In this document: in pieces, positions 5,147-38,900 of the stretch
How positions within the stretch are numbered: the stretch's first letter is position 1
Layout of the letters: every line of letters begins with the position of its first letter
Source of the DNA: a virus
DNA: 64,000 nt
Virus record (IMG/VR): IMGVR_UViG_3300030419_007010
Span: 32,001-96,000 of that record
Reading direction: 5' to 3' (one strand)
Translations under genes and position numbers: made by a program
Notes under the pieces: model-generated
What the model was told of the DNA's origin: nothing
Seen by the model: the letters and a program-made list of their open reading frames with translations, nothing else
Databases searched by the model: none

Positions 5147-5383
5147 TTAAGTATACTTAATTTGTAGTTTTTTTCTTCTTTGAGCTTCAGCTTTTCTAAC
5201 ATTTTGAAGCTTTTTTAATTTTGCTCTTCGTCTCTTCTTTGAAGGCTTCTCGAAAAACATTTTTTCTTTGTATCTTTCAATGACTTTTTCTTTTTTAACT
5301 TTTTTAATAAATTTTTTAATTAATCTGCTGGTGTTTCCGCCAACTTCTTTTAAAGAAACCTCAACATGTACTGGTTTAGCCAT
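5147..5383 (-). CDS. rpsU: Phage-encoded 30S ribosomal protein bS21
   Basis: 78 aa and very basic. LIKKFIKKV...VIERYKEKMFFEKPSKKRRRAK matches the bS21 signature (LrrFkr...r.ffeKPs.kRr). Confidence 0.85.
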   Translation of the reverse strand: MAKPVHVEVSLKEVGGNTSRLIKKFIKKVKKEKVIERYKEKMFFEKPSKKRRRAKLKKLQNVRKAEAQRRKKLQIKYT

Positions 5384-5395
5384 TGTTTTTCCTTT

Positions 5396-5815
5396 TTAAA
5401 TTAAGTGCTTCCACTTGCCATTAGCAAGATTCAAAATACCGTCGATATTTACTCCGGGATCTTCAGCGCTTTGGCCGCCAAGTGGCCCTTTTCCTGGTGC
5501 ATCTGGGGGGAGGTCGTTTCTATCGATTCCCTCGAATACATTTACTCCAGTTACTTTTGTTGATTCGTTAAGTTTGCGAATCCTTTCCTGTCTTTCTGCT
5601 TCAGCCTTCTCTTCTAAAATTCTTAGCTTCTCTTGCTTCTCGGTATCATCTGGCTTGGTTTTGATCGTGACACCTTCTGTCACAACTCTTCTAGTCTCTA
5701 AACCAGAAACAACTTCGGTAATAATTCCAGATAAAACACCGTCTTCAAAAATGCATTCTTTAATACACTCTTTAATTAAAGGCTTAAGTACTTGTTTTAA
5801 TTCATTTTTCTTCAT
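5396..5815 (-). CDS. Hypothetical protein (139 aa), possible prohead core/scaffold-related
   Basis: N-terminus MKKNELKQVLKPLIKECIKE followed by a charged coiled segment. Lies in the head-assembly region. Confidence 0.5.
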   Translation of the reverse strand: MKKNELKQVLKPLIKECIKECIFEDGVLSGIITEVVSGLETRRVVTEGVTIKTKPDDTEKQEKLRILEEKAEAERQERIRKLNESTKVTGVNVFEGIDRNDLPPDAPGKGPLGGQSAEDPGVNIDGILNLANGKWKHLI

Positions 5816-5825
5816 TGTTATCCTT

Positions 5826-6914
5826 TCATGGAGCGGGGAAGGCCCCTGCTCGAATCCTGTCGCTCACAGCCGCAGCATTCTCCTCGCCGGAAGTTTTTAA
5901 AACGTTATCTTTTTTTGCTATAGCATTAAGCACATCTTGCAGCTTTAGAGGATCAAGAAGATCACGCGTGTGTAAACTATGTAGAGCGTTTCCTACAGCC
6001 TTTGCAAGATCTGCAGAACGCTGGGGGCTGTCGTCGGCGCTATATTTTTCAAATGCTTTTAATAGGAGAGCCGTTACAGCTTTGCGCTCACCTTTTGTCC
6101 AGCCGCCATGGCCGACTGGCTCGGAACCTAGCGCTCCCTTGAGGCGATCAAGAATTCCCTCTTGGTATATCTTTTCTTCGGAAAAATGTCTCGTCTGCCA
6201 ATCATCTCGAAGGTCCTCCACTTTTGTCTTCAGCCAGTCGATGAGTTCGTGATTCCCCCCAACACCAGTTTTTAAAAGATCGCCGGCCGTTTTGATCGCC
6301 GCGGCGGGACTCTCTTTCTCTAAGTCATTGATAGTTTTGGTAACCTCTTCAAATTGTTTGTTATAGGCCTGAACTCTGGCTTTAATTTTAGCGTCGTACT
6401 CGGGGTTTGGTGGATAATCTTTCCAACTCTCTAATACGGCTGATGTCTCTTCTTTAATGATTCTTGCCAATTCTTCTTTGGTGATATTCATTTTGGATTC
6501 TTGCTGGGTGGATTCGTTATAACGGGTCCAGATGGGCCTCGGGCGGTCTTGGCGACGTTGGTGGAGGTAGGGGCTCGGTCGGTCTCCGGAGAGGCGCCAT
6601 GTGTTTCTGATGCTTTCGGCGGCCTTTCGCGCCTTTTCGGCGAAGTCGCCTTTGATGCGCATGGCGTTGATGCAATCCATATGCTTTTTTAGAAGGGCTG
6701 ACTCTAGCGGACTTCCGGGTGGTAAATCCAGGAGGCCGGCGTCCTTGAACTCGTTGGCCAATTGCTCAAAGCACTTCTCCCGGGCCTGGATGGACATGGT
6801 GTTATATTTCGGGTGAGGGTGCTCCTTCTTCGCGCGTAGCCGCCACCGCGGTGGATTTGAATTATTTATCTCTTCTCTAATGATTTGTTCCAGTTGTTCT
6901 CTTGTAATTCCCAT
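5826..6914 (-). CDS. Leader-family protein with two leader copies (362 aa), putative internal head protein
   Basis: Begins MGITREQLEQIIREE. A second copy MNITKEELARIIKEE starts at residue 142 (ATG at 6491). Immediately downstream of the prohead protease. Confidence 0.6.
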   Translation of the reverse strand: MGITREQLEQIIREEINNSNPPRWRLRAKKEHPHPKYNTMSIQAREKCFEQLANEFKDAGLLDLPPGSPLESALLKKHMDCINAMRIKGDFAEKARKAAESIRNTWRLSGDRPSPYLHQRRQDRPRPIWTRYNESTQQESKMNITKEELARIIKEETSAVLESWKDYPPNPEYDAKIKARVQAYNKQFEEVTKTINDLEKESPAAAIKTAGDLLKTGVGGNHELIDWLKTKVEDLRDDWQTRHFSEEKIYQEGILDRLKGALGSEPVGHGGWTKGERKAVTALLLKAFEKYSADDSPQRSADLAKAVGNALHSLHTRDLLDPLKLQDVLNAIAKKDNVLKTSGEENAAAVSDRIRAGAFPAP

Positions 6915-6916
6915 TG

Positions 6917-7549
6917 TTAATCTCCCAAGATATCATCAAGAACATTGTTGATTCTTTGAGTTTTTGTAGTATTTTGCTGGTTTTCTGCCAGTCCGATAGA
7001 AACTCTACTTCTTGACCCGCCTTCCGGATTCAAGTAAGCCCCTGGCGTTGAAGGTTCCGAAACAATATCAAAGCAAATAAGCTGAAAATCATCTTCAACC
7101 ATTGTTATGCCGTTTGATTCTTTTACTGAACCTAATCCTCTCGAAGAAATTCCTAGTTTTACTCCCGATTGAAGCAAAGCTTTTAATACTTTGCCCGAGG
7201 GGGTATCCAAAACTTCAATTTTGCCCATTACATTATCGCCATCCCACCAAGTTTTCGTAACAAGATGAGAAGCGTTCTTCAAGTTGATAACAGAATCATC
7301 AGGATGATCTAGTTCTCCCAACGATCTTCTTTCTTGAACCGCTCTTTGGTAATTTTCTACTTCTCTCTGCAAAGTTTCTTTACGATAGATTCGACCATTA
7401 CCATTTTTTGTTCCGGCGCGTTGAATCACACCAACAAGATAAACCGATCCGCCATCAACACGACGTTTTTCGTCTTCGGTTAATACAGTTAGATCACAAA
7501 TGCCATCCGGACATAATTGGAAATATTCTTGTAAAAGTGTTTTTGACAT
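6917..7549 (-). CDS. Prohead protease, T4 gp21-like (peptidase S77)
   Basis: NGNGRIY, LGELDHP, ASH, TPSG, GISSRGLGS and FDIVSEPSTPGAY motifs. Likely start MSKTLLQEY at 7549; the ORF track extends it to 7570. Confidence 0.93.
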   Translation of the reverse strand: MSKTLLQEYFQLCPDGICDLTVLTEDEKRRVDGGSVYLVGVIQRAGTKNGNGRIYRKETLQREVENYQRAVQERRSLGELDHPDDSVINLKNASHLVTKTWWDGDNVMGKIEVLDTPSGKVLKALLQSGVKLGISSRGLGSVKESNGITMVEDDFQLICFDIVSEPSTPGAYLNPEGGSRSRVSIGLAENQQNTTKTQRINNVLDDILGD

Positions 7550-7555
7550 AATATT

Positions 7556-7575
7556 AAAAAGCAGGCGCAACCTGC
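7556..7575 (-). terminator. Putative rho-independent terminator or attenuator hairpin
   Basis: Minus strand reads GCAGG-TTGCG-CCTGC followed by TTTTT. Confidence 0.5.
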
Positions 7576-8514: not shown

Positions 8515-9335
8515 TAGCTTTGTATCTCTTTTACTAAACTTTGAATTTTCATAATCTTTTGAATCATACTCGAAGTTATTTCTGTGTTTCTAAACTCTTC
8601 TATTGTATTAATAACTTTCTGTGTTTTTTCAAAAATCAAAGGATTGCTTTTAACCGCCTCGGAGTGAAGCGATTCTGTCATTTGGGTTTTTAATCTTCCA
8701 ACTTCTTCATTTAAGAAGACTTTGAACTCAACACCATTGTCTGAAAAAGAAGTAATATACTTATTCAGCAATTCTTTTTGTTCTTCTTGCAGGTTCTTGG
8801 AATAAATTGAATTAAAGTTTTTTGTAAATGTATTAAAAACCAACTTGTCGGTTGTCACAATTTTTTCTTTTAGCATTTCCTGTGGCTCGCTCAACTGGCC
8901 AATCACTTTTTCTTCTAAAAGAACTCGTTTTTTAGGTCCATCTTCTTCATTGAAAAGTTGATAGATCGTGGCGATATTTTTATATTGCGGAACAAAGTTA
9001 GAAAATATATTTCTTGAGAGAGATTTGTTTATTTGATTAATAAGTTTGCTTTGAGCTTCAAAAACCTCTTCTCTATCTAAACTTTTATATTCTCTTCTAG
9101 CTTCGTATACTAGCTTTTCTGCTATTCTGCTTGACAAGTTTCTACTTTCTAATAAAGATTTATAAATATCTAATTCTTTTTTGAGAATGCTGTCTTTTTT
9201 AAAGTTTTCTTTTATTAGTGAAATAATCTTGTTTTTTGTTTGTGAATTATTCTTGACAATTGATTTTGTTAGTTCTTTTACAAGTGCTTCAAATAAAAAC
9301 GCTGTATTTCTTTTCTTATTATGTCTAAACTTCAT
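8514..9335 (-). CDS. Hypothetical helical protein next to portal (273 aa)
   Basis: Long ORF overlapping the portal stop; K/E/L-rich. Confidence 0.7.
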   Translation of the reverse strand: MKFRHNKKRNTAFLFEALVKELTKSIVKNNSQTKNKIISLIKENFKKDSILKKELDIYKSLLESRNLSSRIAEKLVYEARREYKSLDREEVFEAQSKLINQINKSLSRNIFSNFVPQYKNIATIYQLFNEEDGPKKRVLLEEKVIGQLSEPQEMLKEKIVTTDKLVFNTFTKNFNSIYSKNLQEEQKELLNKYITSFSDNGVEFKVFLNEEVGRLKTQMTESLHSEAVKSNPLIFEKTQKVINTIEEFRNTEITSSMIQKIMKIQSLVKEIQS

Positions 9336-11316
9336 TCTTTTTCGTCTCCAACAATTCCATTTCGTTGATTAACTGCTTTATATCATGATCAACTTTTAAT
9401 AAATTATCTTCATCTCTTTTATAATTAGACTCTAAATTCTCTGAAATACCTTTTGCTAGTCTTCGCATGTCGTCAGCGCCTTTCCAGATATTTCTTGTGG
9501 TATTTTTTGTTAATTCATCTGCCCACACACCCTTATAATGTCTTTGCCTTGCGGAGCCGGCATAATTGGGATTTTTTTCGGGCATATACCACTTTTTAGA
9601 TTTCGGAGTAGTTGTTTGTACGCTCGTGCCTTTCTTTCTAACTAGCTTTATAGGCATCTCCTTTCCATCATCTCTTTTTGCCGGGGCAGCGAGCAGGGCA
9701 CCGGGATCGGCCGGCTCTTCAGCGCCAGCTTCGGGCACTGCCAATTCCTCATCACCAGCCGCGATGGCTTCTTCTTCGGGCGGCAGGCCTCCACCAAGAT
9801 CGTCCATCGGTTCATCGAGACCCTCCAGATCACCAAGTCCTCCGGCTCCAGGTTCGGCGCCTGCTGTGACTTCTTCAACTGTTCTTTCTAGAGCAGCCTC
9901 AAACTTTCTGTCATAGAACATCTCTCTCTGACATCTAGTAAACTCTTCTTCGGACATGCTGAATAGGTGATCTGAAATCCATCGCTTGCTGAAATATCCT
10001 TCGGTGGCTGCGCTAGCAACATCAAATTTAGTTCTCCAGTGTTCTAGTTCCTGCATCTCTGCTAGTTTAGATGGATTGTTCAAAGCAATCTTGAACGAAA
10101 CCAAGTCGGCGCCTCTGTAGCCAAGAGTAAACAAATGGACAATGCCAATTTTCTCTAGTTCTGAAATTATAACTCTTTGAAGCCTCTGAATGGTTCTCGC
10201 AAATCGAATATCTTTTTGAGCTAGCGTTGTTTTATCTTCTTCTGCGCCGCCTTCCGTCTGCGCCAAATAAGATGCCGGTATCTTTAGTGCCGAGAATAGC
10301 TTATCTCGCAAATATTTGATATCATCAATATCACCAGTATACGTGCCGCCCGGTAGAGACTCAACTTTAGAAGAAGTATCCCCGCGAACTGGAATAAAGT
10401 AATCTTCTTCAACGCTCATCGGGTTATAACGCAAATCGACGCGTCCGGTATCTTGATCGATGACCTGATTTCTCTTCATTTGCGTCATGACCTTCTGCAT
10501 ATACTGTTCAACATCGGCAGGAGGAATATTGCCTACATCAATATAGAAAACTCTTCTCTCTGGCGAGCGGACAATACGATAGGCCATTACGGCGTCTTCC
10601 ATAAGAGTTAGCTGGCGCCAAATTCTTCTAGCCGGCTCCAAAATAGAGGTTCCATAAGGAGAATACTTATCGTTGCCTAAAATTCTAAAGTGTGCAATCT
10701 GCCAGTTCTCAAATGTAATGCCACCGGTGTTCCATTGATACTGAATATAGTTTGGATTAGTCTTGTCTTCACCCTCAAGTCTTTCTATTTCTTGCGGAGG
10801 CAGGCCAACTGCATATTGGATGCCTTCTTGTTCGTCAATATCTAAATAAAGAAAGAAGTCGCCGTATTTGCACATTGTGCGAGCCCAGCCGAATAAATTA
10901 AATTCAATATTTAATACATTCTTATATAAGTTATCCAAAACTGTTTTTATTTCTTCGTTATGACAACTAATTTTCATCAACGGCTGCAAATCGCTAGATG
11001 TAGTCATCTCGTCTGCATAAATATCAAGCGCTGAAGCGATTTCTGGCGTATATTCCATCTGATCAAAGTCAACATACCGATCGGCACGGTTTTGATTCGC
11101 CATATAATTGGCTTGAATTGAATCATAAGGATTATACTCTGACTTTTTAAACTGTTGACCGGAAGATGAGCGAATATTATACTTTGATATTTCTCTACGA
11201 TGAGGTTGTCGAGGAAGCTGCCTACGATAGTTTACAATCGGGCCTGACAAAAGTCGCGTGAGTTTTCGGAATAATATATTTTTTGAATTTCTAGGGTTAT
11301 TTTTATTTTCAGCCAT
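9325..11316 (-). CDS. Portal protein, T4 gp20-like (663 aa)
   Basis: EIASALDIYADE, LMEDAVMAYRIVRSPERRVFYIDVGN, EEDYFIPVRG, LPGG and DIKYLRDKLFSALKIP motifs. Long acidic C-terminal extension. Confidence 0.95.
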   Translation of the reverse strand: MAENKNNPRNSKNILFRKLTRLLSGPIVNYRRQLPRQPHRREISKYNIRSSSGQQFKKSEYNPYDSIQANYMANQNRADRYVDFDQMEYTPEIASALDIYADEMTTSSDLQPLMKISCHNEEIKTVLDNLYKNVLNIEFNLFGWARTMCKYGDFFLYLDIDEQEGIQYAVGLPPQEIERLEGEDKTNPNYIQYQWNTGGITFENWQIAHFRILGNDKYSPYGTSILEPARRIWRQLTLMEDAVMAYRIVRSPERRVFYIDVGNIPPADVEQYMQKVMTQMKRNQVIDQDTGRVDLRYNPMSVEEDYFIPVRGDTSSKVESLPGGTYTGDIDDIKYLRDKLFSALKIPASYLAQTEGGAEEDKTTLAQKDIRFARTIQRLQRVIISELEKIGIVHLFTLGYRGADLVSFKIALNNPSKLAEMQELEHWRTKFDVASAATEGYFSKRWISDHLFSMSEEEFTRCQREMFYDRKFEAALERTVEEVTAGAEPGAGGLGDLEGLDEPMDDLGGGLPPEEEAIAAGDEELAVPEAGAEEPADPGALLAAPAKRDDGKEMPIKLVRKKGTSVQTTTPKSKKWYMPEKNPNYAGSARQRHYKGVWADELTKNTTRNIWKGADDMRRLAKGISENLESNYKRDEDNLLKVDHDIKQLINEMELLETKKNEV

Positions 11317-18796: not shown

Positions 18797-21700
18797 TTAG
18801 AAACTAACATAAGCATATCCGTCCTTTTTCTCAATAATAAGTTGAGAATCTACACAATCTTTCAACGAGTCCAAGTGCGAAATCAATACGACTGTTTTAA
18901 ATTGTGTCTTAACCATGTCCAACATCCTGACAAAGCCTTCCATATTATCTTCGTCAAGCGCAGTACCGGGCTCGTCGAGAATAAATATATCAGACTTTGG
19001 AAGAGTCGAGACATTTAACAGCGCCAAGCGGATGGCCATTGCAGCAATAGTTTTTTCTGCTCCGGAACCCATTTCGATCGGACGTGGATCGTGGCGCGGG
19101 TGTTTAATATGAATATCCAGCTTCTTACCATCTTCTTCAAAGAAAATTTCAAACTCTACAATATTGGTAAGAATTTTAGATATTTCTTCGTTAATGATTG
19201 GAAGCTTTTTCTTAATAATATCATATGATATGCCGTTAGTATGCATGCATCTCAAGTATAAATCAATAGAAGAATATTCATTTTGAAGAGTTATATACTC
19301 TTGTTGTTGTTGCTCTAAATTTTTAACACTCTGTTCCAAAGAGCCGTGAACTTTATAAAGCTCCAAAGTCTCTTCATTGCATTTCTCATATCTATCTTTA
19401 AAATCGACATGTTTATTAAAAGTGTGCTCTTTTTGTTTAATAAGCTCTTCAAGATTTTCTATAGTTTCTTTATTGTCTTCATACTCTCGTTTTTTATCAT
19501 TAAGATCTTTTAAAGCGCTCTGAGTCTTTAAGAGTTTGGTCTTGTTCTTTTCTATCAAAAGTTTGGTGTTGTTGACAGAACGTTGAACTTCGTTTCTCTT
19601 TTCTAAAAGTTTATCATACTTTTCCAGATACTCGTTAATTTTATCTGGCTCCAATGACGAAACTTCTTGTTCCACTTCTTTCTTGAAAAAGCTTAATTCT
19701 TCGATTGAAACCTGTACTTTCCCAATTTCGTTTTTGGATTCATATGCGTCTTTGATAAATTTACAACTAGGAAAACTATCGCCACACGGCACTTCGTCGA
19801 GGAGTTCAATCTTCTCACCATGGTGGCTAAACTTCATTTCCAAGACTTTTAGCTCTTGTTCAAAGTTCTCAATTTTCTTTCTATGTTGCTGAATTAACAA
19901 AGCTTTTTCTTCATATGAAGCATAATCAAAGCTGCTAATGAACTCTTCCATTCTCACGAGAAGGTCCCTGTTGTCGCTCAATCGAGAACTGAATTCAGTG
20001 CTTTGTTCTTTGACAGTCTCAAGAAGCTCTTCTTGTTCATCAATTCTTCGATTCACAAAAGCAATATCAATAATCTCCGCAGGAATTGAATCAATCACAG
20101 AATTTAAGTCATTGATCTTGCCAGCCAGTATTTCAATATCTTTGCTTAAAAGCTCGCATTCTTTCTTTTTTCTCTCCGCAACAATTTCATTTAAGACCAA
20201 TTCTTCGTTAGCTAGTTTAATTTCTTCTTTAAAATCACGACCTTCTAGGCGTTTTAAAGCCGCGCGAATTTCAGAAGCTTCTTCTTTGGCTAACTTAAAC
20301 TTCTTTTCAAACAACTCTAAATCTAGAAATTTAGCTAGAATTTCCTTTCGCCGGGTTGAACCTTCATTAATAAATGAAAGCGAACCTAACTGGCTAGCCA
20401 TTGAAGTCATAAGGAAATCTTCGATGGTTCCAAACACCTTCTTGATATTCTTGTCGGTGTCCATTCGGCTCAAGCCGTTCAATGAATCGACTTCTCCAGT
20501 TGTGTTGTTGCGCTTAACAAAATTAACATCAGTTTTTGCTTCAAGAGTAACTTCACCTTTAAGCTTCTTTGTATATTTTTCAGAAGTTCTCTCAATCAAA
20601 TAAGTGTTATGGCCAACATCAATTTCTATTTCGCCAACACATGATTGTTTATTTTGATTAATAAAGTTAAGATTCTTTCTTACATTCTTCGAAGTTGAGT
20701 TGTATAAAGTGTAAAGAATACTATCAACAATGCTGGACTTTCCTGAATAGTTCTTGCCAAACACGCCCAGAATTCCATGAGAGTTTCCAAAGTCGATTTC
20801 ATTATCTGAACCATAATTGAAAAGATTATCCCACTTCACGCTTCGCAAACGCCAGTTTACGTTTCTTGCAACTTCTTCTTCTTGTTCAGCTAAAGTGTTA
20901 TATCTTTTGTTGAGATCAAAAATAATATCAAGAAGTTCTTCCGGAGTATCATACTCTTCAAGATATCCAGAAATAAGCTTTTCTTGGGTTTTCAGATTTC
21001 TTAAATCTTCTTGGACCAAGTTTTTTGCTAATTCAGATACATTGGCGTTGTCTTCTGCTCTGTTAAGGTAGGTGATAGCTTCTGGCTTAAAACGGTGTTT
21101 AGCTACGTCTATTGCCTTCCTCACGGCATCCAAGGATAAATTACTAGTGGATACCAGCCTTAACCTCGCGCCTTCCGGCAAGGAGGTGTTTTTGGGCATC
21201 CTGCCCTTCTTGGTTAGCTCGATAGTAATAAAGGGCTTTGGATTAGAAATTGGGATATGCTTGACAGTAAACTCTTCTTTGTCTTTGATATCCCAAACCA
21301 AGAAGCCTTTATCGTTTGTCTCGCCGTGATTCTGCTGAATAGTAGAACCTGGATATCTGACTCGACCTTCGGGATCTAATGCCTGATTTGTCTTGTGGAT
21401 ATCACCAAGGAAGGCAAAATCGAAATCCTTAAAGATTGTAATGTTGTCATCAGTGTGTTCTAGTGTCCAACCAATGTCGGTTTTTGAACTAGAGACAGAC
21501 CCGTGATACAAAGCGATATTCACGGCATCTTTATTTGATGGTTTAACCCAATTCTCTCTATCAAAGACGGAAAGCACGTTAAAATAGAAGCCGTCTTTAA
21601 GCTTCATCTCTTGCGAATCTTTTAGGAGATATAGATCGGGGTGATCAAGCGAACGAACAATTGGTGTCAAAGCATCGAGACGGCCACTGTTTTTCAAGTT

Positions 21701-21946
21701 CCCGTCGTGATTACCAAGAATTACAACTGTTGGTGCTATATCAGCTAATGAAGACAGAAACCAGCTGACCATACTGATCATCTCTGGACTCATGTCGGTT
21801 TTTGTGTGAACTAGGTCACCACATATAACGATGTTATCTACTTCTTCTTTTCTTAAAACATCATAAAGCTGTTTGAAAACTGCTCTATATTCAGTATGAT
21901 ATTTTAATTTCCGAATGTGAACATCTGCCAGATGGGCAATGCGCAT
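18797..21946 (-). CDS. Fused Mre11/SbcD nuclease and Rad50/SbcC ATPase (T4 gp47-gp46-like) (1049 aa)
   Basis: Phosphoesterase motifs DVH, GDLVH, GNHD, YHG, GDIH. Walker A GKNYSGKS, long coiled coil, signature GSGAE, Walker B ILDEP, ISH. Confidence 0.92.
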   Translation of the reverse strand: MRIAHLADVHIRKLKYHTEYRAVFKQLYDVLRKEEVDNIVICGDLVHTKTDMSPEMISMVSWFLSSLADIAPTVVILGNHDGNLKNSGRLDALTPIVRSLDHPDLYLLKDSQEMKLKDGFYFNVLSVFDRENWVKPSNKDAVNIALYHGSVSSSKTDIGWTLEHTDDNITIFKDFDFAFLGDIHKTNQALDPEGRVRYPGSTIQQNHGETNDKGFLVWDIKDKEEFTVKHIPISNPKPFITIELTKKGRMPKNTSLPEGARLRLVSTSNLSLDAVRKAIDVAKHRFKPEAITYLNRAEDNANVSELAKNLVQEDLRNLKTQEKLISGYLEEYDTPEELLDIIFDLNKRYNTLAEQEEEVARNVNWRLRSVKWDNLFNYGSDNEIDFGNSHGILGVFGKNYSGKSSIVDSILYTLYNSTSKNVRKNLNFINQNKQSCVGEIEIDVGHNTYLIERTSEKYTKKLKGEVTLEAKTDVNFVKRNNTTGEVDSLNGLSRMDTDKNIKKVFGTIEDFLMTSMASQLGSLSFINEGSTRRKEILAKFLDLELFEKKFKLAKEEASEIRAALKRLEGRDFKEEIKLANEELVLNEIVAERKKKECELLSKDIEILAGKINDLNSVIDSIPAEIIDIAFVNRRIDEQEELLETVKEQSTEFSSRLSDNRDLLVRMEEFISSFDYASYEEKALLIQQHRKKIENFEQELKVLEMKFSHHGEKIELLDEVPCGDSFPSCKFIKDAYESKNEIGKVQVSIEELSFFKKEVEQEVSSLEPDKINEYLEKYDKLLEKRNEVQRSVNNTKLLIEKNKTKLLKTQSALKDLNDKKREYEDNKETIENLEELIKQKEHTFNKHVDFKDRYEKCNEETLELYKVHGSLEQSVKNLEQQQQEYITLQNEYSSIDLYLRCMHTNGISYDIIKKKLPIINEEISKILTNIVEFEIFFEEDGKKLDIHIKHPRHDPRPIEMGSGAEKTIAAMAIRLALLNVSTLPKSDIFILDEPGTALDEDNMEGFVRMLDMVKTQFKTVVLISHLDSLKDCVDSQLIIEKKDGYAYVSF

Positions 21947-21986
21947 ACTCTTATCCTATATATCTGCTCATTATGAGCCACAATAC

Positions 21987-22015
21987 ATTCTAGCAAATCA
22001 TAAGGGACAAGTCAA
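21987..22015 (-). promoter_or_regulatory. Sigma70-type promoter for the Mre11-Rad50 gene
   Basis: TTGACT (22015-22010), 17-nt spacer, TAGAAT (21992-21987), with an extended -10 TGn. Confidence 0.75.
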
Positions 22016-22022
22016 GCTTTTT

Positions 22023-22424
22023 TTAATAACTTGTTGGTCCCGAATTTCTAGTCAATATTGGCTTAGATTCCTCTTTCTCTTGTGCCCAACTTGGAGTTGG
22101 AAAGTTTGGCACGGCTTCTTTACTTTTATCTAGTTTGTTTCCGTAGCCTTGTTCTTCGAGCGCAACTAATGCATCTCGAAGGTTTTGTGCTGCGTCAACA
22201 ACTTGTTCTGGTAATATGTCTAGTGGAAGCTCTTCTAAAATTCTAGAAGCTACTTTAACGTTATTATATACTGCGTCTGGATCTTCTTCTGAAGTGTCCA
22301 TAAGATCTGACGGGCCTAGGCCTTGGGGTTCTGGTGTGACGCCGGTGGCAATAGAGAACGGGCCGATAGTCTCTTTCAGTTCTTCTTTAATGATTTGTTT
22401 TAATCTTGTTTTAGTTATCTTCAT
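22023..22424 (-). CDS. Leader-family protein (MKITKTRLKQIIKEE...)
   Basis: Likely start is the ATG at 22424 with GAGGAAGAG upstream, not 22499 as in the ORF track. Confidence 0.65.
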   Translation of the reverse strand: MKITKTRLKQIIKEELKETIGPFSIATGVTPEPQGLGPSDLMDTSEEDPDAVYNNVKVASRILEELPLDILPEQVVDAAQNLRDALVALEEQGYGNKLDKSKEAVPNFPTPSWAQEKEESKPILTRNSGPTSY

Positions 22425-22737
22425 TGATCTCTTCCTCAAGCGGCGCGTGAGCCGGCGTGGATCCGCGGGGGCGTTCGGCGCCGGCGAGAGGTTCTCCAAT
22501 CGATTCTGAGTCTATAAAATAAGAAAGTGTCTCTAGCATATCCCGCACAATTTTCTGAACCTCTTTTTCTGGCATATGAGGATGATTTTGGCGAAGCTTC
22601 ACGGTCAGCGCAGTACCGAGTTCGTGTCTAGTGGCTTCTGTCAAAACTAATTCAGTTTCTTTTTTAGAAGCAGAAGCTTCTACTAGATCTAGTTCTTCTT
22701 TAATAATTTCTTTTAGTCTTGATTTTGTTATTTTCAT
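22411..22737 (-). CDS. Leader-family protein (MKITKSRLKEIIKEE...)
   Basis: Shared N-terminal leader; TAATG coupling. Confidence 0.7.
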   Translation of the reverse strand: MKITKSRLKEIIKEELDLVEASASKKETELVLTEATRHELGTALTVKLRQNHPHMPEKEVQKIVRDMLETLSYFIDSESIGEPLAGAERPRGSTPAHAPLEEEINEDN

Positions 22738-23066
22738 TATCTGGGAGCCCTATATGTATCTTCACCAGTGCGGGCGAACTCAGCATCACTCTTGGCGAAG
22801 GAACTAAGCCCATGTTTTCGTTTAAACTCTATAGCAATTTCATCAACCATCGTCTTAAGTCTTCCACCAGTAATAGATTTTCGAATTGTTTCTAAAGCCT
22901 CTTCTGCTGAAAGTTTTACTTGATATAACTCGTCGCGACAGGCTTCTACTGATGCTTGTGCGCGCTTCTTGCCAAATAAATCAATCTCGTTGATTTTCTT
23001 TTCAGCCAATACATTAGCTACTTCTTCTTTAATGATCTGTTCTAGTTGTGATTTTGTTATGTTCAT
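22737..23066 (-). CDS. Leader-family protein (MNITKSQLEQIIKEE...)
   Basis: Shared N-terminal leader. Confidence 0.7.
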   Translation of the reverse strand: MNITKSQLEQIIKEEVANVLAEKKINEIDLFGKKRAQASVEACRDELYQVKLSAEEALETIRKSITGGRLKTMVDEIAIEFKRKHGLSSFAKSDAEFARTGEDTYRAPR

Positions 23067-23413
23067 GATATTATTTGCTTAACTTATCCGTTATTATATC
23101 TACTAGATCTGCCCATTCAGCCGCCGGCGAGGACTTGCTCGGGAGAAGGATCTTCGCGCCTAGGGTATAAAGCAGGTTTTGTGCAAACTCTTGAGTTAAA
23201 TATTCCGGGAGTCCACCGCCCAAACTTGCGCCATCGCCGGTCGCGATGGAATAATAATCATTAAGAACTTCAGGATTTATTTTAGCTTTTTGCAAAATTT
23301 CTTCCGGGGAGGGCGGAGAACCAGGGGCCTCTCTTAAAATATTCTCTATTACTTCTTCTTTAATGATCTGTTCTAGTTGTGATTTTGTTATGTTCATGAT
23401 ATTATTTGCTTAA
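23019..23413. repeat. 64-bp exact direct repeats flanking one leader-family gene
   Basis: tacttcttctttaatgatctgttctagttgtgattttgttatgttcatgatattatttgcttaa at 23019-23082 and 23350-23413. Confidence 0.92.
23071..23397 (-). CDS. Leader-family protein (MNITKSQLEQIIKEE...)
   Basis: First 16 codons are identical to those of the downstream gene. Confidence 0.7.
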   Translation of the reverse strand: MNITKSQLEQIIKEEVIENILREAPGSPPSPEEILQKAKINPEVLNDYYSIATGDGASLGGGLPEYLTQEFAQNLLYTLGAKILLPSKSSPAAEWADLVDIITDKLSK

Positions 23414-24351
23414 GTAGAAAGCACACTCCTTAATAAATAGTTAGAACTATTCATAAGTATAGCATTTTTTTTGCGCTCTTCAAACTCGCTTTTGCTCATC
23501 TCGCCAACATCTGAAAATGGGAAGATATTTATCTTATAAACTTCAATCCCGTATTCCATCAAATTGTTGATCAATCTCAACGCTTTTTTCTCAACATCAG
23601 GATCCAAAGCGATATATATTGTTGTCTCGTTTGCTGCAAGTTCTTGAAATAATTTAGAGTTTTCTTTTAACGTCGAACCCAAAATAGGAATTGCGCTCGG
23701 TCCAGCAACAATGGCATCATAAACGCCTTCAACCAAAGTGACGCTTTCTTTCCAATTAACATATAGATGATTAAATATTATATCCTTCTCAACCGGCGGG
23801 TTCTTATACTTCATCCAATCGTCAACATATGTTCGAGAAACAAAGTAATTGCAATATCCTGTTAAACCAAAAGAAGGAACGATTATTCTATTTGCGTATT
23901 CTCCTTCTGAACAATATCCTATTTTCCATCGGACAATATCCTTTTCTGTTATGCCACGAGACTTAAGATATTTTCTTGCGGCCAGCGAGCCAATAGAGTT
24001 GTTTCCGTTGGCTAATGATATAAATTCTTTTGGCAAGCCAACTTGTTCTTCTAATGTTTTTGTTTCTTCTGTTCCGAAGATCGATTCTTCAAAATCGTTA
24101 ACATCAACAGAGCCATCCAATTCTTTCCAAGATTCAATCTGTTTGAAGTTGCCGAAGCGCCGGATGAGTCTTGAGATGTTTCTTCCACTATAATCACAGA
24201 TCCAACATTTGAAAGCATTCTTATCAACATTAACTGATAGCTTGTTTTTATGGTGCGTGCATTCTGGACAGCGAAAAAGAAACTCTTCGCCAGTTCTATA
24301 AAACCGGCCGAGGATATCAACTAGGATTCTTCTTTTTTCTGCTTCTGCCAA
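23410..24351 (-). CDS. DNA primase, DnaG/T4 gp61-like
   Basis: Zinc ribbon CPEC...CWIC, YLKSRGI, RIIVP, KYKNP, and TOPRIM EGVYD...LDPD. Confidence 0.9.
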   Translation of the reverse strand: MAEAEKRRILVDILGRFYRTGEEFLFRCPECTHHKNKLSVNVDKNAFKCWICDYSGRNISRLIRRFGNFKQIESWKELDGSVDVNDFEESIFGTEETKTLEEQVGLPKEFISLANGNNSIGSLAARKYLKSRGITEKDIVRWKIGYCSEGEYANRIIVPSFGLTGYCNYFVSRTYVDDWMKYKNPPVEKDIIFNHLYVNWKESVTLVEGVYDAIVAGPSAIPILGSTLKENSKLFQELAANETTIYIALDPDVEKKALRLINNLMEYGIEVYKINIFPFSDVGEMSKSEFEERKKNAILMNSSNYLLRSVLST

Positions 24352-24848
24352 AGACTGTAACCTGCGCGAGCGATGACGATTGCGTCCGCTCTGTCGTATG
24401 TACCGGGTTTTGGATTACCCTGCTTTGTATATACAATATCAAAATCAGATTCGTTTGTCAATACATATTCCAAAACAACTTGTTTAGCTTTCGTTCCGCG
24501 TGGTATTTTAATTCCACACATCTTTCTTGCTGACGTAGCTGCCAAATAATCTGGCTCCATTGCAAAATGTCTATAGCAAATCCACGAGACAACACCGTTG
24601 AATCTAGAGAGAGTTGATAAAGTTTTTGCCGACGAGAATCCAGATCGGAACGATTGCAACGATTGCTCAATAAAGATCCTATCTGGCTTTATGGGAAAGC
24701 TTTCTATCTTTTCTCGAATAACCTGCGCTTTGGTAAAAAAGTTTTTATATTTGCGCAGATCCCAAACGTCGCTATGAACCAACTCTCCATTATCGTCCAC
24801 AACGGCAACACCAGTTATGCTGGTACTGACGTCTAATCCTAAAATCAT
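24321..24848 (-). CDS. RuvC-like Holliday junction resolvase
   Basis: ILGLDVSTSITGVA, IFIE and DRADA acidic catalytic pattern. Confidence 0.8.
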   Translation of the reverse strand: MILGLDVSTSITGVAVVDDNGELVHSDVWDLRKYKNFFTKAQVIREKIESFPIKPDRIFIEQSLQSFRSGFSSAKTLSTLSRFNGVVSWICYRHFAMEPDYLAATSARKMCGIKIPRGTKAKQVVLEYVLTNESDFDIVYTKQGNPKPGTYDRADAIVIARAGYSLWQKQKKEES

Positions 24849-26018
24849 TTAAAAGTCCAATTTTAATTTGAACGTATAATCCTTATCTTCTGTCTTTTTG
24901 ACTGGATTGGCAAGTTTTGCAACTGCAATTAAATTCTTATCTTTATCATAAATGCCAATTTTAGAAATATACGTCTGCTTTTCAAAGCTAGCAGTATATT
25001 CATTATACGGGCTTTTGATAATATTTTTAATAACTAAATTAGGATTTTCTTTATAATGTTTTCCAACTGTGCCTGTTTGTATGTTTTGAATCTGCCCTTT
25101 GCTAATAAAAGTCGAATTGTTGGAATTATTCAATGCAGCTTTTGGAGCATGCGCCATCATTGTTATAGTTGGAATATAATTTGTCCCTTCAAATTCTAAA
25201 TTAAAGCTCGAAGAAACAATCCTATCATAAGAATCTCCTTGAGAATTAAAGTGAATCCATTTTGGATTAGAATTTGAACCGCCGGCAATATATTTTTCTT
25301 GATGGCTCTTATCAATTCCAATAGCGTTTGTTCCTGTTAGAATTAAAAACCCTTCATTATATAATACAACGCCAGCTACAGAGCCTGAACCGATACTATC
25401 GATTGGGCCGGATTGTACTAAAGCACCGTCTCTATTTTCGTCTGTTGCTTCTGCAATCAAAGTTCCAGTAACATAAAAACTTAATTTAACTGTGCCTTTC
25501 TTTATTGAAGAGCCGTAGAAAATAGAAGGAATACTGATTAAAGTTAATTCATCTTGAGCAAGATCGTGATAAAGGCTAGCTGAATATTGATAATGAGGAT
25601 TTAGCCGAGAATAATAGTCTAAAGTAGTCCTTAAAGATTGAATCCGAGGGCGGGCATAAGTAGTAGCATAATAATCTCTAGAAATAGTGGCAGTCATCGG
25701 ATAACTTCCACTTATAACATCACCAAAATTAAAGTCAGTATTAAAATTCGAAGTCGTTATAGTTTTAAAACTAGTTGAGCTGCCTTGTTTTGTTACAAAC
25801 GGATAAACTAAATTATCATCTGGCCGATCAACACCGGGGCCTCTATTTACATTTATTTCGTAAAGATTTATATGACCGTTAGGAATATTTGGATTAGAAG
25901 AAGTTTGGCTAGTATTGTTGTAATATACCGATCCGCTCCAAGTTAATAACTCAACTTTAGGATGGGTTTGGATTCTATTACGAAATATGTCATTTTTACC
26001 AAACTTATAATAAGGCAT
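24849..26018 (-). CDS. Virion structural protein, baseplate/collar-like (389 aa)
   Basis: C-terminus ISKIGIYDKDKNLIAVAKLANPVKK...FKLKLDF. Paralogous to the neighbouring gene. Confidence 0.6.
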   Translation of the reverse strand: MPYYKFGKNDIFRNRIQTHPKVELLTWSGSVYYNNTSQTSSNPNIPNGHINLYEINVNRGPGVDRPDDNLVYPFVTKQGSSTSFKTITTSNFNTDFNFGDVISGSYPMTATISRDYYATTYARPRIQSLRTTLDYYSRLNPHYQYSASLYHDLAQDELTLISIPSIFYGSSIKKGTVKLSFYVTGTLIAEATDENRDGALVQSGPIDSIGSGSVAGVVLYNEGFLILTGTNAIGIDKSHQEKYIAGGSNSNPKWIHFNSQGDSYDRIVSSSFNLEFEGTNYIPTITMMAHAPKAALNNSNNSTFISKGQIQNIQTGTVGKHYKENPNLVIKNIIKSPYNEYTASFEKQTYISKIGIYDKDKNLIAVAKLANPVKKTEDKDYTFKLKLDF

Positions 26019-26039
26019 AACTAATTGTTCCTATAACAT

Positions 26040-26047
26040 TAATTAGT
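26040..26047 (-). promoter_or_regulatory. Candidate late-promoter motif ACTAATTA
   Basis: Recurring nCTA[A/T/C]TTA motif just upstream of gene starts; intergenic here. Confidence 0.5.
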
Positions 26048-26054
26048 GTTAAGC

Positions 26055-27233
26055 CTAATAATCTAATCTAACTCTTAAAGTAAACTCCGTAGTTGGATCT
26101 TTCTTAAGTGGTTCTGAAAGTTTCGCAACAGCCAACAACTCGTTATCTGCAGAATACAAGCCAACTGTTGTGATATAAGAAACCGGCATATCTGCGGAAA
26201 CATTTTTAGTTACGAGCTTGCTATTAGAAACATATGTTGGGTTAGCACTGTAATTAAACTCGTTATGATTTGCTCTCGCATAATAAATGGTTGAGTTAAG
26301 TTCAACAGTATTATTAAAACTAACGTTACTTACTCTGTTCCTAAATCCATTACATAGAGTTTGGATTGTTGAGCCGGTGGAGTGTCGCCAGATTGGCGTG
26401 TTTGTGGTACCAAAAAAGGATGCCATTGTGCCGTGAGGCAGAGAACCAGAATCAGCAGTTGAACCGGTAGTATTATGGCTACCAGGAGAACGTCCCGCAT
26501 TATTAGCAAAAATAGATGACGTAATTACAGCGATACCTGCTTGATAATAAATTAGTCCCAGGCCAGAACCAGGAACAATATTAGCAGATGACGAATAAAG
26601 AATACCATATTCTCCTGCTGGGGAGTTTACGAAATAATTATTTGTTGCATCATAATCACCAAGAGTGAATAGGGCGTCTCGTCGTGAGCCAAAAGAAGCC
26701 GATAAGCCCGTACTGTAGTCCAGAGGAACATTGTCCCAAGAGCCGCCTGTAACGAATGATAGTGCCATGGAACCTTTCTTAACTTCGTCCTTGGTTAGAA
26801 GCCTAGCAAAAGAAACAAAGAAACATTCGTCAAGTGTCTCCCCGCCGCCAGCAATATTGCCATCGCGATCGAAGTCTCTAATTGTGCCATCTTGTTTATA
26901 TCCAGCTAGTGTTTGTGCCATCTGTGCGTAAATTCTTGATTTCTTATCCAACTGAGTCGACTCGGCGCCGGCGGAGGCCAGCGAAGACGTTATTGTTGGC
27001 GAAATGCCATAAGTAATATCAAAGATGTGATTTGCGGAAGAACTTAAATAAGGATAGTCATAAACTGACTGAAACATTCCGTGTGAAAAATTCTTAATAT
27101 TTTCTTCTGTTCCACCTTCACCTCGTTGGTAAGTGCCTGAAACGATTGTTCCTGTAATGGGGATTGCTTCATGTAATAACGTTCTAGTTGAAGTTACGTC
27201 GTTATTTGTTAAAGACTTAAAGGATGTTGCCAT
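26055..27233 (-). CDS. Virion structural protein, baseplate/collar-like (392 aa)
   Basis: C-terminus ITTVGLYSADNELLAVAKLSEPLKK...LRVRLDY. Shares the KKG and GxxxYxxG segments with 24849-26018. Confidence 0.6.
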   Translation of the reverse strand: MATSFKSLTNNDVTSTRTLLHEAIPITGTIVSGTYQRGEGGTEENIKNFSHGMFQSVYDYPYLSSSANHIFDITYGISPTITSSLASAGAESTQLDKKSRIYAQMAQTLAGYKQDGTIRDFDRDGNIAGGGETLDECFFVSFARLLTKDEVKKGSMALSFVTGGSWDNVPLDYSTGLSASFGSRRDALFTLGDYDATNNYFVNSPAGEYGILYSSSANIVPGSGLGLIYYQAGIAVITSSIFANNAGRSPGSHNTTGSTADSGSLPHGTMASFFGTTNTPIWRHSTGSTIQTLCNGFRNRVSNVSFNNTVELNSTIYYARANHNEFNYSANPTYVSNSKLVTKNVSADMPVSYITTVGLYSADNELLAVAKLSEPLKKDPTTEFTLRVRLDY

Positions 27234-35981: not shown

Positions 35982-38900
35982 TTAATCTTCGCTCCTAGGA
36001 CCAAACATTATTTCTGCTGTTAGCTTGTTTAATTCTGACAGGGAATAAAAATCATGTGGCCAATTATACGAAATCTTTTCTTTGATTGAAACTGTATCAT
36101 TATCTTTAAAGGCATCCATATCCATCAACGATTCGTATCTGTTGTTCGCTCTCTTCTTTACTTTAAATACCAACCACTTAAGTTCTTGGTTAAATATTTT
36201 TTCTAAAGATGATTTATTCCCAGCAGGAGAATCGTCCGGGATATCTGGGCCATCATAATATTCTATTTTATTTCCCCCTGGCATATAACTTTTAATTTGA
36301 TCTAACATGCCAAAAAACTCCCAGCGATCAGTGCTTTTGTTAATGCCATGAGACTTAACGCTGAACTCTTGCTCGGCGGCGGTGGCTTGTTTTGGCATAA
36401 TATTTTGCCATATATCTCCAAGATCTTTTTTATCCAATTTGGAAGTTATTTCAAAAGTATACATAACAAAGGGTAATATACCTTGAGAAGTATTAACAGA
36501 GCCAAACGCATCAGATACTTTGGTTTCTGAATATTCACTAAGATTCGACTCGGAGAGACCTTGAGAATAAAAATCGATCATTGGAGGGAATATATACTTT
36601 CTCATATTTTTTATCAAGTCTGATATCGACGTCCGAGATCTCTTTACCGATCCTTCAATAGCCACATAATCTACCTCTGGATTGCGCAAATTCAAAAATT
36701 GATGATAATATGAATTTTGATTAATTGGAATTGCGTTAATTATATGCCCGTTCGAGACCTTTCTAAAAGGCTGGACCGTTAAGTTTTCGATCGGTTCCTC
36801 AACGTATGGTATTGCGACGATGCATTCTGCTACTTCAGCCGAATCTGCTAACTCTCCAACTCTTTTTTCAATTTCTGTGTCGCCCGTGGAATCAGCAATT
36901 GAATTCATATTAGTCATAGAATCAAATTTCAATAACTGAATCAAGCTGCCTGATTTATTAATATCATAATTTGGATCGTTCTGGTCAATGGCTTCTCTGA
37001 GATAGTACTTAATTCCTTTTTTAATCGGCTTGCCCCCTTCATATATCCATTGCGATGGATCTTCAGAATGCACGTTCGCATACGAATTCCAAATAGATCT
37101 TCCTGTTCGTTTACTAAAATATGGGCCGCTCTCTACGTCATGATTATAGCCACTGTCATAGCTGCTAGCGGAAACACATATAACGGGACATTCCCATTTT
37201 GGACGAATAGCCCAAGCAATTTTATCAAATCCGTCCGAGTCAGAATATCCTTTTACACCAAATTTTCCGTCGGGGCCGGCGAGGGCGCCGTATTGAACTT
37301 GTTTAACGGGGATCTTATCAAAAAGGTTCAAAGAAGCGGTGATGGCCATTGTATTTTTTGCAGCAATAGAATAAGGATGTAGAAGATCTTTCGCCCTAAT
37401 ATGAACGCCGGTGCGATTTCCATCTTGGTCTTTTACTATATCACTCTGGCGCTGTGGAGACAATAAATCAAAACTGGCATTAGAATTTGGAACAATGATA
37501 CTATCATATTCATTATAATAGCTCACACCTACTTTATCAGTCACGGAGCTGCCTTGAATTTGTGACATTATTTCATCAATACTAACAGCGTTCGCGCCTC
37601 CTTCTTCAGAATCTGGGGCTGTCCACCTTATTTGCGCTACCGATTTGCCATAATAATATGGAGGAGTATACATAGCATATGCTGGATCCATCTCGGAGTT
37701 ATTAAAGAACCTGTCCGCGGAACCAGACGTGGAACCGCTTGGTCTAGAAGCTATAGATTGCACGACGTGATCAAAATCAGATGATCCTGTTAACTGCCTC
37801 CAGCCGCGGGAAGCGTGGGGCCAATGCACAGTATCGACATCAGGCCTGTTCGGATAAACATCTTTACCGGCGTTGGCAGACGCGCTTCTTGCTGCTGGCG
37901 GGCCGAAGATATACCCTTTGCGAGGGCCGGCCTGTGGGTCGGCGAAGTTCCATTGATGATTAAGATAACCATGCTCTGCTGTATTGGGAGAAAACGCTCC
38001 CGTAAATCGACTTAATATTAGCTGATCTCGCGGGCCCTCAGCCATAACAAGATCATAAGTTACTGGATGTTCTATTTTCTCTAAAACAACCTCCATATAA
38101 TAAGTCTTTCCCACCTCTGGTGTATTCATCTGGCTACTGTCTGCAGAGAAAATTCCATTTCGGCCGCGGGATTTTAAAAAGAAATTAGGTACTTCTGCAA
38201 TAAAATTATTCATTGCTATTTCAAACTGTTTATTTCTTTTTTTGTCATCCCACACAAAAGAGTGAACCGAGCCATAATTCCAATCAAAAGACTGACCGTA
38301 GTCATCACTCGAACCGGCGGAGGGGCCCGAAGCAGAACCAAATGTTGGCTCAATCAGCGGTGATGATCTGGCAATCATCTTCGGTAGCCCGTTGAGGTCA
38401 AATCCGATGGCGTTCGGTACTAGCCTATCCAGATTAACAAGAGACTCAAAGGGTACCCTATAATCAGGATCTGTACTCAAACTTGATCCAGAAGCCCAAT
38501 TGTTTGTCATATTAAACCCAGTGGCGCCGCCCCAATTAGAATTTTCTCCTTCATTTGTTGCGGGAGCGTTTAAAATATAATTTGGCCAATCAACAGCTAT
38601 TCCAGATTTAATCGAATTAAATAAAATGCCAGGAGCAAATAAAGGTTGGAACGCTGCCTGCATCTTGCCGGCTTCATACAAAGCTTCGCCATGTGGTCCG
38701 ATAGTGCCTGTAGTGCGAATAAAGGGATTAATAGATTCTTGATATAATTGCGCTAATTGTTGAGTTCTTGTAGCAGGATAAAATCCGTTATAAGGTAATA
38801 ATTTTTTAATAGCATCTAATCTAAGTATTATATGTGTTGGAACAATATCTTGTTGTTGTGTTCCCTGTCCGGGGTCTAGAGAAGTCAAATCCTCGTGTAT

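Follow-up and report, generated by a model that had tools for sequence, protein, structure and literature searches.

The window analysed here is a stretch of 64,000 nt (positions 32,001 to 96,000 of the IMG/VR record IMGVR_UViG_3300030419_007010), to which all coordinates below refer, from the 161,727-bp genome of an uncultured marine T4-like myovirus, a distant relative of T4. The runs that contain window DNA are marine. In addition to the head genes described below, the window encodes a large terminase as well as baseplate wedge and tail-fibre genes, and a RecA/UvsX-like gene lies elsewhere in the genome. The locus of interest is a tandem array of four small genes, designated A to D, associated with a perfect direct repeat. 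The initial annotation had placed this array between RuvC/primase and Mre11-Rad50, and the identity of these flanking genes was confirmed. The minus strand is the coding strand for all genes at the repeat locus, which, read in the coding direction, comprises the following features:

24321..24848, minus strand: RuvC-like Holliday junction resolvase (phrog_159, E 7e-11)
23410..24351, minus strand: DnaG-type primase (phrog_47, E 1.6e-35), the 3' end of which is the recurrent insertion junction
23350..23413, minus strand: right (primase-proximal) repeat copy, made up of the last base of the final primase codon, the TAA stop, a 12-nt spacer and codons 1-16 of gene A
23071..23397, minus strand: gene A, 108 aa, with the leader MNITKSQLEQIIKEEV and a cargo without relatives; the bracketed 331-bp unit
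23019..23082, minus strand: left repeat copy, made up of the end of gene A (LSK-stop), 4 nt and codons 1-16 of gene B
22737..23066, minus strand: gene B, 109 aa, with the same 16-residue leader as gene A
22411..22737, minus strand: gene C, 108 aa, with the leader MKITKSRLKEIIKEEL
22023..22424, minus strand: gene D, 133 aa, with the leader MKITKTRLKQIIKEEL
18797..21946, minus strand: Mre11-Rad50 (SbcD-SbcC-like) fusion protein, which closes the variable interval on its far side

The two copies of the repeat, 23019-23082 and 23350-23413, are identical at 64 of 64 positions, with differing bases on either side of both copies and a distance of 331 nt from start to start. Each copy, on the coding strand, consists of one T, TAA, a 12-nt spacer and ATG plus 15 codons, the coding part specifying MNITKSQLEQIIKEEV. 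The TAA in the right copy is the stop codon of the primase, and the same bases in the left copy are read one frame over as L-S-K-stop, the end of gene A; the first 16 nt of the left copy are a copy of the primase stop and spacer. Within the first 20 bases of the repeat there are stops in all three frames, namely TAA, TAA and a TGA that overlaps the ATG. These findings bear out the initial annotation, which had described two identical 64-bp stretches bracketing a whole gene, each composed of a stop region, a spacer and the first 16 leader codons, and had recognised the double reading of the stop region as primase stop plus spacer in the right copy and as LSK-stop of the bracketed gene in the left one: the anatomy held in full, and the double reading was established from the reading frames. 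No exact direct repeat in the genome is longer than these 64 nt, the second and third longest (61 and 54 nt) both lying within structural genes, and in 20 shuffles of the genome the longest exact direct repeat never exceeded 18 nt. A repeat search also found diverged copies at the starts of gene C (72%) and gene D (66%), at spacings of 329 and 313 nt. The exact 64-mer had no match in IMG/VR, and a nucleotide search of 18797-24848 against cultured phages likewise gave no match.

A repeat of this kind could arise during assembly, by looping through a single-copy sequence or by the joining of two strain variants, since 64 nt exceeds common k-mer sizes; indeed, in another assembly, in which gene B lacks its first Met, the contig is broken inside the repeat. 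Logan contigs from run X1, which may be the source of the window, and from run X2, which belongs to a second study, were used to check this; in runs X2, X3 and X4, parts of the stretch are without contig cover. In X1 the repeat is a separate 64-nt piece with a depth of 37.6, while the 327-nt insert (23053-23379) has a depth of 18.3, the left piece (21400-23048) 17 and the right piece (23384-24900) 19.6. The repeat thus has about twice the depth of insert and flanks, as expected for two repeat copies and one gene A per genome, and because insert and flanks are equal in depth, the genomes that carry gene A also carry gene B. In X2 a single 478-nt contig (22902-23379, zero differences) spans gene B, the left copy and gene A. 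Taken together, the doubled depth in one run and the bridging contig in another make an artefact of assembly, the first of the objections foreseen in the initial annotation, extremely improbable. The equal depths in X1 also argue that any deletion allele is rare, or at least not common, in that run. A 331-bp deletion allele, a tandem copy and a circle are each composed solely of 31-mers already present in the reference and would thus escape notice in contigs, in which none of the three was observed. Contig joints around 22400-23349 were considered as alleles of the locus and rejected; their sides were short (24-45 nt) with 85% likeness, and we took them to be leader look-alikes from other phages.

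In the annotated frames of the array genes, the base composition at the three codon positions is that expected of coding sequence; in the frame of gene A, GC1 exceeds both GC2 and GC3. What genes A to D have in common is an N-terminal leader of 15-16 residues with the pattern M-x-I-T-K-x-x-L-x-x-I-I-x-E-E. Their remaining parts, here referred to as cargo, are unrelated to one another, and those of A, B and C are without recognisable kin. Pfam and PHROGs searches with A-D and eight further proteins gave no family above cut-off except bS21. In IMG/VR, gene A had no relative and gene B a single, leader-only match; no relative or family was found for the cargo of gene C; and a search with the cargos of A and B against 5.8 billion proteins, covering lengths of 59-191 aa, returned self-matches only. 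Comparison of the cargos alone by BLASTP, at E up to 10, gave no match between A and B. Models from the ESM Atlas were of low confidence (pLDDT 0.40 for A and 0.61 for B) and gave no usable neighbour. Residues 1-39 of gene B are similar (46%, E 2e-9 pairwise) to an 83-aa gene located behind the prohead protease of relatives, and gene D is the only cassette kept in close relatives, at 79-87% amino acid identity.

At least ten genes in the genome start with a leader of the form M-x-[IL]-T-K-x-x-L-x-x-I-I-x-E-E: four in the array, two in the 362-aa ORF listed below, three near 141 kb and one at 151 kb. For statistics on the leader, ORFs were chosen by residues 1-8 only from all the collected loci, which yielded 132 distinct ORFs. 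The motif [ILV]12-x-E14 is present in 125 of these, compared with a background frequency of 1.9% per position in the downstream parts of these proteins, and the information content is 3.6-3.9 bits at residues 14-15, falls to 1.8 at residue 16 and does not exceed 1.3 beyond it. The leader is conserved as a peptide and not as DNA, the synonymous sites having diverged: two leaders that agree in 15 of 16 residues have no more than 37-45 of 48 bases in common. Furthermore, the leader ends in the cleavage motif of gp21, I-x-E, and the head genes of this phage, listed here together with two further ORFs, are of the T4 type:

5396..5815: conserved core-like protein
5826..6914, minus strand: 362-aa ORF directly after the protease, with the leader at residues 1 and 142 and weak scaffold matches
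6917..7570, minus strand: T4 gp21-type prohead protease (Peptidase_S77; PF03420, E 1.3e-31, 110 bits against a cut-off of 27)
9325..11316: T4-type portal (Portal_T4; PF07230, E 2.8e-83)
just outside the window: gp23-type capsid gene (PF07068 Gp23, 200.8 bits)

Because of the I-x-E end and the T4-type gp20/gp21/gp23 head genes, the leader is most likely a T4-style capsid-targeting propeptide, cleaved after I-x-E by the gp21-type protease. At the protein level it would load the cargo into the prohead and then be cut off; both the targeting and the cleavage are predicted from sequence. Leader genes are found directly after the protease in this genome and in 8 of 76 relatives, with one further downstream in 2 more, which favours this assignment. 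Against it count the small share of relatives, no more than these 8, with a strict leader gene in that place, the siting of the array in a replication and recombination module, and the lack of enrichment of a late-promoter motif: TATAAATA, which we take to be the T4 late-promoter word, occurs 6 times in the window, against 7.2 expected, and nowhere near the array. Among cultured T4-like phages (Flavobacterium, cyanobacteria, Caulobacter), no protease exceeds 47% identity to the one encoded here. In searches for the leader outside the metagenomic collections, a 23-aa leader piece gave no tblastn match in cultured phages, and a leader profile run against Flavobacterium phage immuto, P-RSM6, S-SKS1, Cr30 and Mel-JY01 gave weak partial matches only, in 2 of these 5 cultured T4-like records, and therefore no cultured model is available. 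The leader peptide strings were not found in the literature searched.

The divergence of the leaders at the DNA level bears directly on the identity of the two copies. Selection acting on DNA or RNA, for instance on a translation-initiation region, a small RNA or a promoter, could keep two copies identical, and the module does combine three-frame stops, a start codon and an AT-rich initiation region. Promoter-like hexamers are also present within each copy, but on the strand opposite to the genes; on the minus strand, no promoter-like site was found in the repeat. Such selection is nevertheless hard to reconcile with the other leaders of the genome, at least eight in number, which differ synonymously and are preceded by unrelated sequence. 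Rfam gave no match in 21500-25000 at E up to 0.1, and the only two terminator-like sites in 21500-26200 lie within the primase and Mre11-Rad50 genes, with none beside the repeat copies or the cassette junctions. We therefore regard selection on the nucleic acid as highly improbable. Since other leader pairs have diverged at the DNA level, the identity between A and B is best read as recent. The initial annotation had likewise proposed a recent event, and this dating, although drawn from sequence comparison, agrees with the comparison of leaders: no other listed pair from one record shares an uninterrupted run of more than 25 identical bases.

A conserved gene order, RuvC-primase-[variable]-Mre11-Rad50, is seen both in IMG/VR and in metagenome contigs. 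In 63 of the 69 IMG/VR loci with both bounding genes, the interval between primase and Mre11-Rad50 measures 2-1968 nt, with no, one or two leader genes in 32, 27 and 4 loci, respectively. When both collections are combined, window included, there are 97 distinct loci, with an interval of -22 to 2069 nt as measured by the script and with 0, 1, 2, 3 or 4 leader genes in 48, 39, 7, 1 and 2 loci. The closest relatives differ in the genes that they carry. Locus L151, with a primase 94% identical in amino acid sequence and DNA 86% identical to the window, has the order primase-X-D; L152 (primase 86% identical) has primase-X and then the end of the contig; and L153 (primase 82% identical) has primase-X-Y-D, where the window has A-B-C-D. 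The initial annotation had suggested that cassette number and content would vary among relatives, and had named a fixed gene set as evidence to the contrary; the gene sets clearly differ.

The alignments to these relatives locate the differences precisely. L151 is homologous to the window through primase, spacer and leader as far as 23349, the base adjoining the leader-end boundary at 23350; homology resumes at 22434, ten bases before the start of gene D. For L153, homology stops at 23354 and resumes at 22424. Gene C matches gene X of the relatives over the leader plus five codons and over the last seven codons, the middle being unrelated, and the cargos of A, B and C are without counterpart in the closest relatives. 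As C shares only its ends with X, and the cargos of A and B lack counterparts, the cargo of X has been replaced and A and B are extra in the lineage of the window. Among 227 close locus pairs, which are not mutually independent, 92 had no break in the interval. In the remaining 135 the break came just before the leader start (23 pairs), fell within the leader (28), coincided with the leader end (11) or with the end of a leader gene (16), or was located at other sites (57), for the most part directly behind the primase stop. Alignments run through any similar leader, so the breaks at leader ends are compatible with crossovers in the leader and are not proof of them.

The origin of the repeat can be traced from the spacer. 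Apart from a few base changes, L151-L153 have kept the spacer behind the primase stop, which is orthologous to the spacer of the right copy, and the sequence upstream of C, D and Y is unrelated to it. The 16 nt before gene B are therefore a copy of the primase junction and not a product of convergence. To this copied junction the leader adds 48 of the 64 bases of the repeat, extending it from 16 to 64 nt.

Gene conversion offers another account, in which concerted evolution homogenised the leaders of two long-standing neighbours and no cassette was gained. A and B are adjacent, their leaders are similar enough to pair, and phage recombination is very active, with UvsX-like, Mre11-Rad50 and RuvC genes all present in this genome. 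Yet the identical stretch begins 16 nt before the ATG, taking in the primase stop and spacer, with nothing similar before C, D or Y, so that the conversion tract would have to end in non-homologous DNA. Conversion of leaders would not carry non-homologous upstream sequence, and duplication of the junction explains both ends of the repeat. Moreover, the ceiling on identical runs given above holds for the genome as well as the related loci, so that no other listed leader pair has been homogenised, and the closest relatives lack A and B altogether. For these reasons we judge gene conversion unlikely. If a single cassette had been duplicated in tandem and the cargos had diverged afterwards, this would account for the nearly equal lengths of the units (331 and 329 nt). 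The cargos of A and B are without any similarity, however, and the 64 nt are unchanged, a combination incompatible with tandem duplication under one molecular clock; we assign this scenario a next to negligible probability.

Three other lineages show what appear to be older duplications of the primase 3' junction. In L210 a 66-nt repeat with 97% identity (5822-5887 and 6599-6664 of that locus) has its copies 777 nt apart, around a 232-aa gene, and contains the last 60 or so bases of the primase, the stop and three bases. L018 and L175 have 66 nt at 91%, with copies 900 nt apart around a 279-aa gene, and L019 has 88 nt at 84%, 308 nt apart, comprising the last ten primase codons, the stop, the spacer and the leader. 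When 78 loci were tested for a second copy of the primase end, one was found in 4, with 33-38 of 40 bases matching; shuffled queries reached at most 26 of 40. In L210 and L018/L175 the duplicated junction takes in none, or the first few bases, of the leader of the downstream gene. The one feature common to the genes inserted in L210 and in L018 is another N-terminal motif, ...L-[IL]-M-E-N-W-R-E-[FY]..., which in most other genes that have it, and not in that of L210, ends in [LV]-x-E. Because the scars in L210 and L018/L175 occur without a shared leader, the recurrent element is the primase junction, that is, the 3' end plus spacer. That the duplicated junction in L210 and L175 needs no shared leader counts against the interpretation given below in so far as that relies on the leader.

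Two claims of the initial annotation are modified by these comparisons. It had proposed that leader DNA serves as a homology handle for cargo; this fits the one event at the A/B repeat, in which the leader supplies three quarters of the identical bases, and does not fit in general, as leaders diverge synonymously. It had also proposed the gain and loss of cassettes at the array; the comparative data support such turnover and do not support the leader as the general handle for it, a role in which the primase junction recurs instead.

Two classes of mobile element were considered for the array and set aside. An integron-type array has in its disfavour the neighbours (RuvC, primase and Mre11-Rad50) and the lack of an integrase match among the 14 proteins scanned; nor was there an inverted repeat at the cassette ends, as would be looked for in attC-type sites. 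Target-site duplication by a transposon was rejected because the duplications, of 64-88 nt, vary in extent and are not of fixed length, and because the insert is the 267-nt remainder of an ORF, with neither transposase nor inverted ends.

In our view the repeat is probably, with some reservation, a duplicated junction left by the recent stacking of one more cassette beside the primase, and the leader a capsid-targeting propeptide. The locus is a variable array of small genes that share an N-terminal peptide of 15-16 residues and carry unrelated, fast-changing cargo. Two routes could have led to the present arrangement, where R denotes the repeat. In the first, unequal exchange would have taken place between a primase-R-A genome and a primase-R-B genome; in the second, a small circle carrying R and the cargo of A would have integrated. 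The homology used in either route would be the primase stop, the spacer and the shared leader, and the product of either would be primase-R-A-R-B, so that the two routes are formally equivalent. The upstream end of the repeat would correspond to an illegitimate joint at the 3' end of gene A, and the downstream end to the point at which the cargos of A and B diverge.

With two identical copies at hand, the recombination machinery of the phage (UvsX/RecA-like, Mre11-Rad50, RuvC) could in principle delete gene A precisely, amplify it or release it as a circle of 331 bp. The initial annotation had noted that one crossover would cleanly remove a 331-bp unit, and the geometry of the repeat agrees: such a crossover would delete exactly A and keep primase-spacer-B intact, and the reciprocal product of exchange between the copies would be a 331-bp circle or a tandem copy. 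The recombination route, the excision and the formation of a circle are all inferred from the arrangement of the repeat.

We also put forward, as a more tentative and on balance doubtful proposal, that in this marine T4-like clade the primase 3' end serves cassettes as a dedicated docking site, and that cargo between two copies of the junction (primase end, stop and spacer, whether or not a leader is included) is a mobile unit which would excise as a circle of a few hundred bases and re-integrate by homology at the primase end of any co-infecting relative. If true, this would explain why unrelated genes with either of the two types of leader are found at one junction, with duplications of different ages in at least four lineages, and the locus would represent an integrase-free, integron-like array of capsid-delivered effectors.

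Turnover of accessory genes is fast in T4-like phages, and the range of hosts open to T4 is decided by the internal proteins that it injects. The addition of accessory genes has been documented mainly in coliphages, by way of non-coding PeSL cassettes. Here, in an abundant uncultured marine lineage, we find an apparently fresh, base-perfect scar of such an addition, with seemingly older scars of the same type at the same junction elsewhere, and part of the homology is coding sequence for the proposed targeting peptide. These findings suggest a concrete, testable route for the gain, loss and exchange of cassettes in ocean phages and provide a defined site at which natural variants can be counted in long-read viromes.

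With respect to the leader, the closest known parallel is the internal proteins of T4, which carry N-terminal capsid-targeting propeptides of 10-19 residues on otherwise diverse proteins; gp21 cleaves after L/I-x-E (PMC9026906 sections 2.5 and 2.6, the motif in section 2.5; PMC3012670). Each internal protein of T4, a group also treated in PMC12373910, blocks a particular GmrSD nuclease. As in IPI, IPII, IPIII and Alt, a short N-terminal peptide is found in A-D on small, unrelated and fast-changing proteins, it ends in L/I-x-E, the phage encodes a gp21-type protease, and the loci vary between related phages. The leader described here is longer than the T4 sequence, at 15-16 residues, and the two are likened by architecture and motif, not by sequence. 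Furthermore, A-D sit between primase and Mre11-Rad50, unlike the T4 ip loci, and are known here from genes alone. For the polymorphic ip loci of the T-even phages (Repoila et al. 1994, as cited there), PMC4122927 remarks that shuffling had been noted "without detailing a mechanism".

With respect to shuffling, the PeSL of the hyperplastic regions in T4-type phages is a non-coding element between ORFs, made up of an early promoter of the sigma-70 type and a stem-loop terminator (PMC2839356, PMC4122927), and circles of ~400 bp between repeated PeSL cassettes have been shown by inverse PCR in RB49 and phi1 (PMC2839356). The parallels with the shuffling described by Arbiol et al. (2010) and Comeau et al. 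(2014) are several: the phages are T4-type; small, non-essential ORFs without relatives lie between direct copies of an element; indels and replacements between close relatives (here L151 and L153 against the window) are bounded by that element; and the phage's own recombination is the presumed engine. The unit of 331 bp is near the size of the PeSL circles given in PMC2839356. The same source, citing Singer et al. (1982), states that less than 50 bp of homology suffices for T4 recombination, and the 64-bp identity falls within that range. The element repeated here is of another kind, being composed of the 3' end of a gene with its stop, the spacer behind it and the codons for an N-terminal peptide, with neither a flanking terminator-like site nor a standout promoter signal; in the accounts cited, circles are demonstrated for PeSLs only.

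A further point of comparison is the short-homology recombination of T4 reported by Srikant et al. (2022; PMC9391042), in which segmental amplifications and deletions arose at homologies of 2-10 bp under laboratory selection. There as here, direct repeats around a small accessory gene are substrates for rapid change in copy number, and the duplicated junction is the product that would be expected of unequal exchange. Unlike the events in that report, the homology in the marine phage is 64 bp long, natural, and links two distinct genes, not copies of a single gene. The repeat is, in sum, a variant of known T4-type modular shuffling.

Across four marine metagenome runs, the 44-nt leader of the cassette gene C (22694-22737), which encodes the N-terminal peptide shared by the cassette genes, was the sole part matched by many contigs (at least 85%), and these contigs diverged from the window on either side of it. 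Summed depth over the same 44 nt was 35-866, as against 0-30 alongside, and numerous loose contig ends fell at 22691-22694 and 22737-22740. The many leader-only matches, together with the raised depth, indicate that the leader of gene C is very widespread in marine metagenomes.

Further leader genes were found in the genome to which the window belongs (C1 coordinates refer to this whole genome), as was a second type of leader:

C1:139500-142000 (locus L233, ORFs 434-1339, 1329-1676 and 1673-2032), minus strand: second tandem array, three leader genes
C1, about 150.1-151.0 kb (locus L234, 263-1228), minus strand: 321-aa leader protein
Window 5826-6914, minus strand: 362-aa ORF directly after the prohead protease gene, leader at residues 1 and 142
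C1:24533, outside the window, minus strand: second leader type

The proteins of the second array are 301, 115 and 119 aa in length, the middle gene starting with GTG, and the 301-aa product carries another leader-like stretch near residue 210. Similarly, the C-terminus of the 321-aa protein is formed by a leader-like stretch (EEKLKRLIKNELKNNK). The 362-aa ORF has the appearance of two cassettes joined in frame, and a double-leader form of this kind also occurs in a relative, L073 (407 aa). Were the leader to act as a cleavage signal, the 362-aa ORF would constitute a small polyprotein.

The second leader type, roughly M-K-L-[LI]-M-E-N-W-R-x-[FY]-[VL]-x-E, is found at the N-terminus of unrelated proteins of about 60-540 aa; like the first leader, it closes with [ILV]-x-E in most cases. 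It was also identified in the related loci L018, L031, L054, L055, L117, L134, L139, L145, L146 and L210, among others, where the genes lie after primase, after Mre11-Rad50 or after the protease.

Other repeats, signals and large ORFs in the window were also noted:

23046-23074 and 23377-23405, plus strand: promoter-like hexamer pairs (TTGTGA, 17 nt, TATTAT, with TG), one per copy of the 64-nt repeat in the cassette array
35982-46697 and 50498-59131, minus strand: two giant ORFs (3571 aa and 2877 aa), tail and baseplate region

The hexamer pairs lie on the opposite strand from the genes and probably just reflect the AT richness of the DNA. A 906-aa tail-fibre gene (13947-16667) and a 1117-aa ORF (815-4168) contain exact direct repeats (15013-15199 and 2964-3054, respectively), 54-61 nt long at spacings of 90-186 nt, which are internal repeats of structural genes.

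Two more genes lie downstream of the protease:

5396-5815, minus strand: 139-aa core-like protein, kept after the protease in related contigs (41 sequences aligned)
5147-5383, minus strand: gene for a 78-aa protein resembling ribosomal protein bS21 (PF01165, 27.4 bits, cut-off 27)

The 139-aa product, whose N-terminus (MKKNELKQVLKPLIKECIKECIFEDG) comprises three I-x-E motifs in succession, probably belongs to the prohead core or scaffold; the same N-terminus bears a faint likeness to the leader. The bS21-like gene sits within the head module, downstream of the protease and the conserved core-like gene, and many related contigs have ORFs with N-termini that, judged by sequence, appear bS21-like. 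In the cultured Microcystis phage Mel-JY01, the annotated order is likewise protease, small gene, RpsU.
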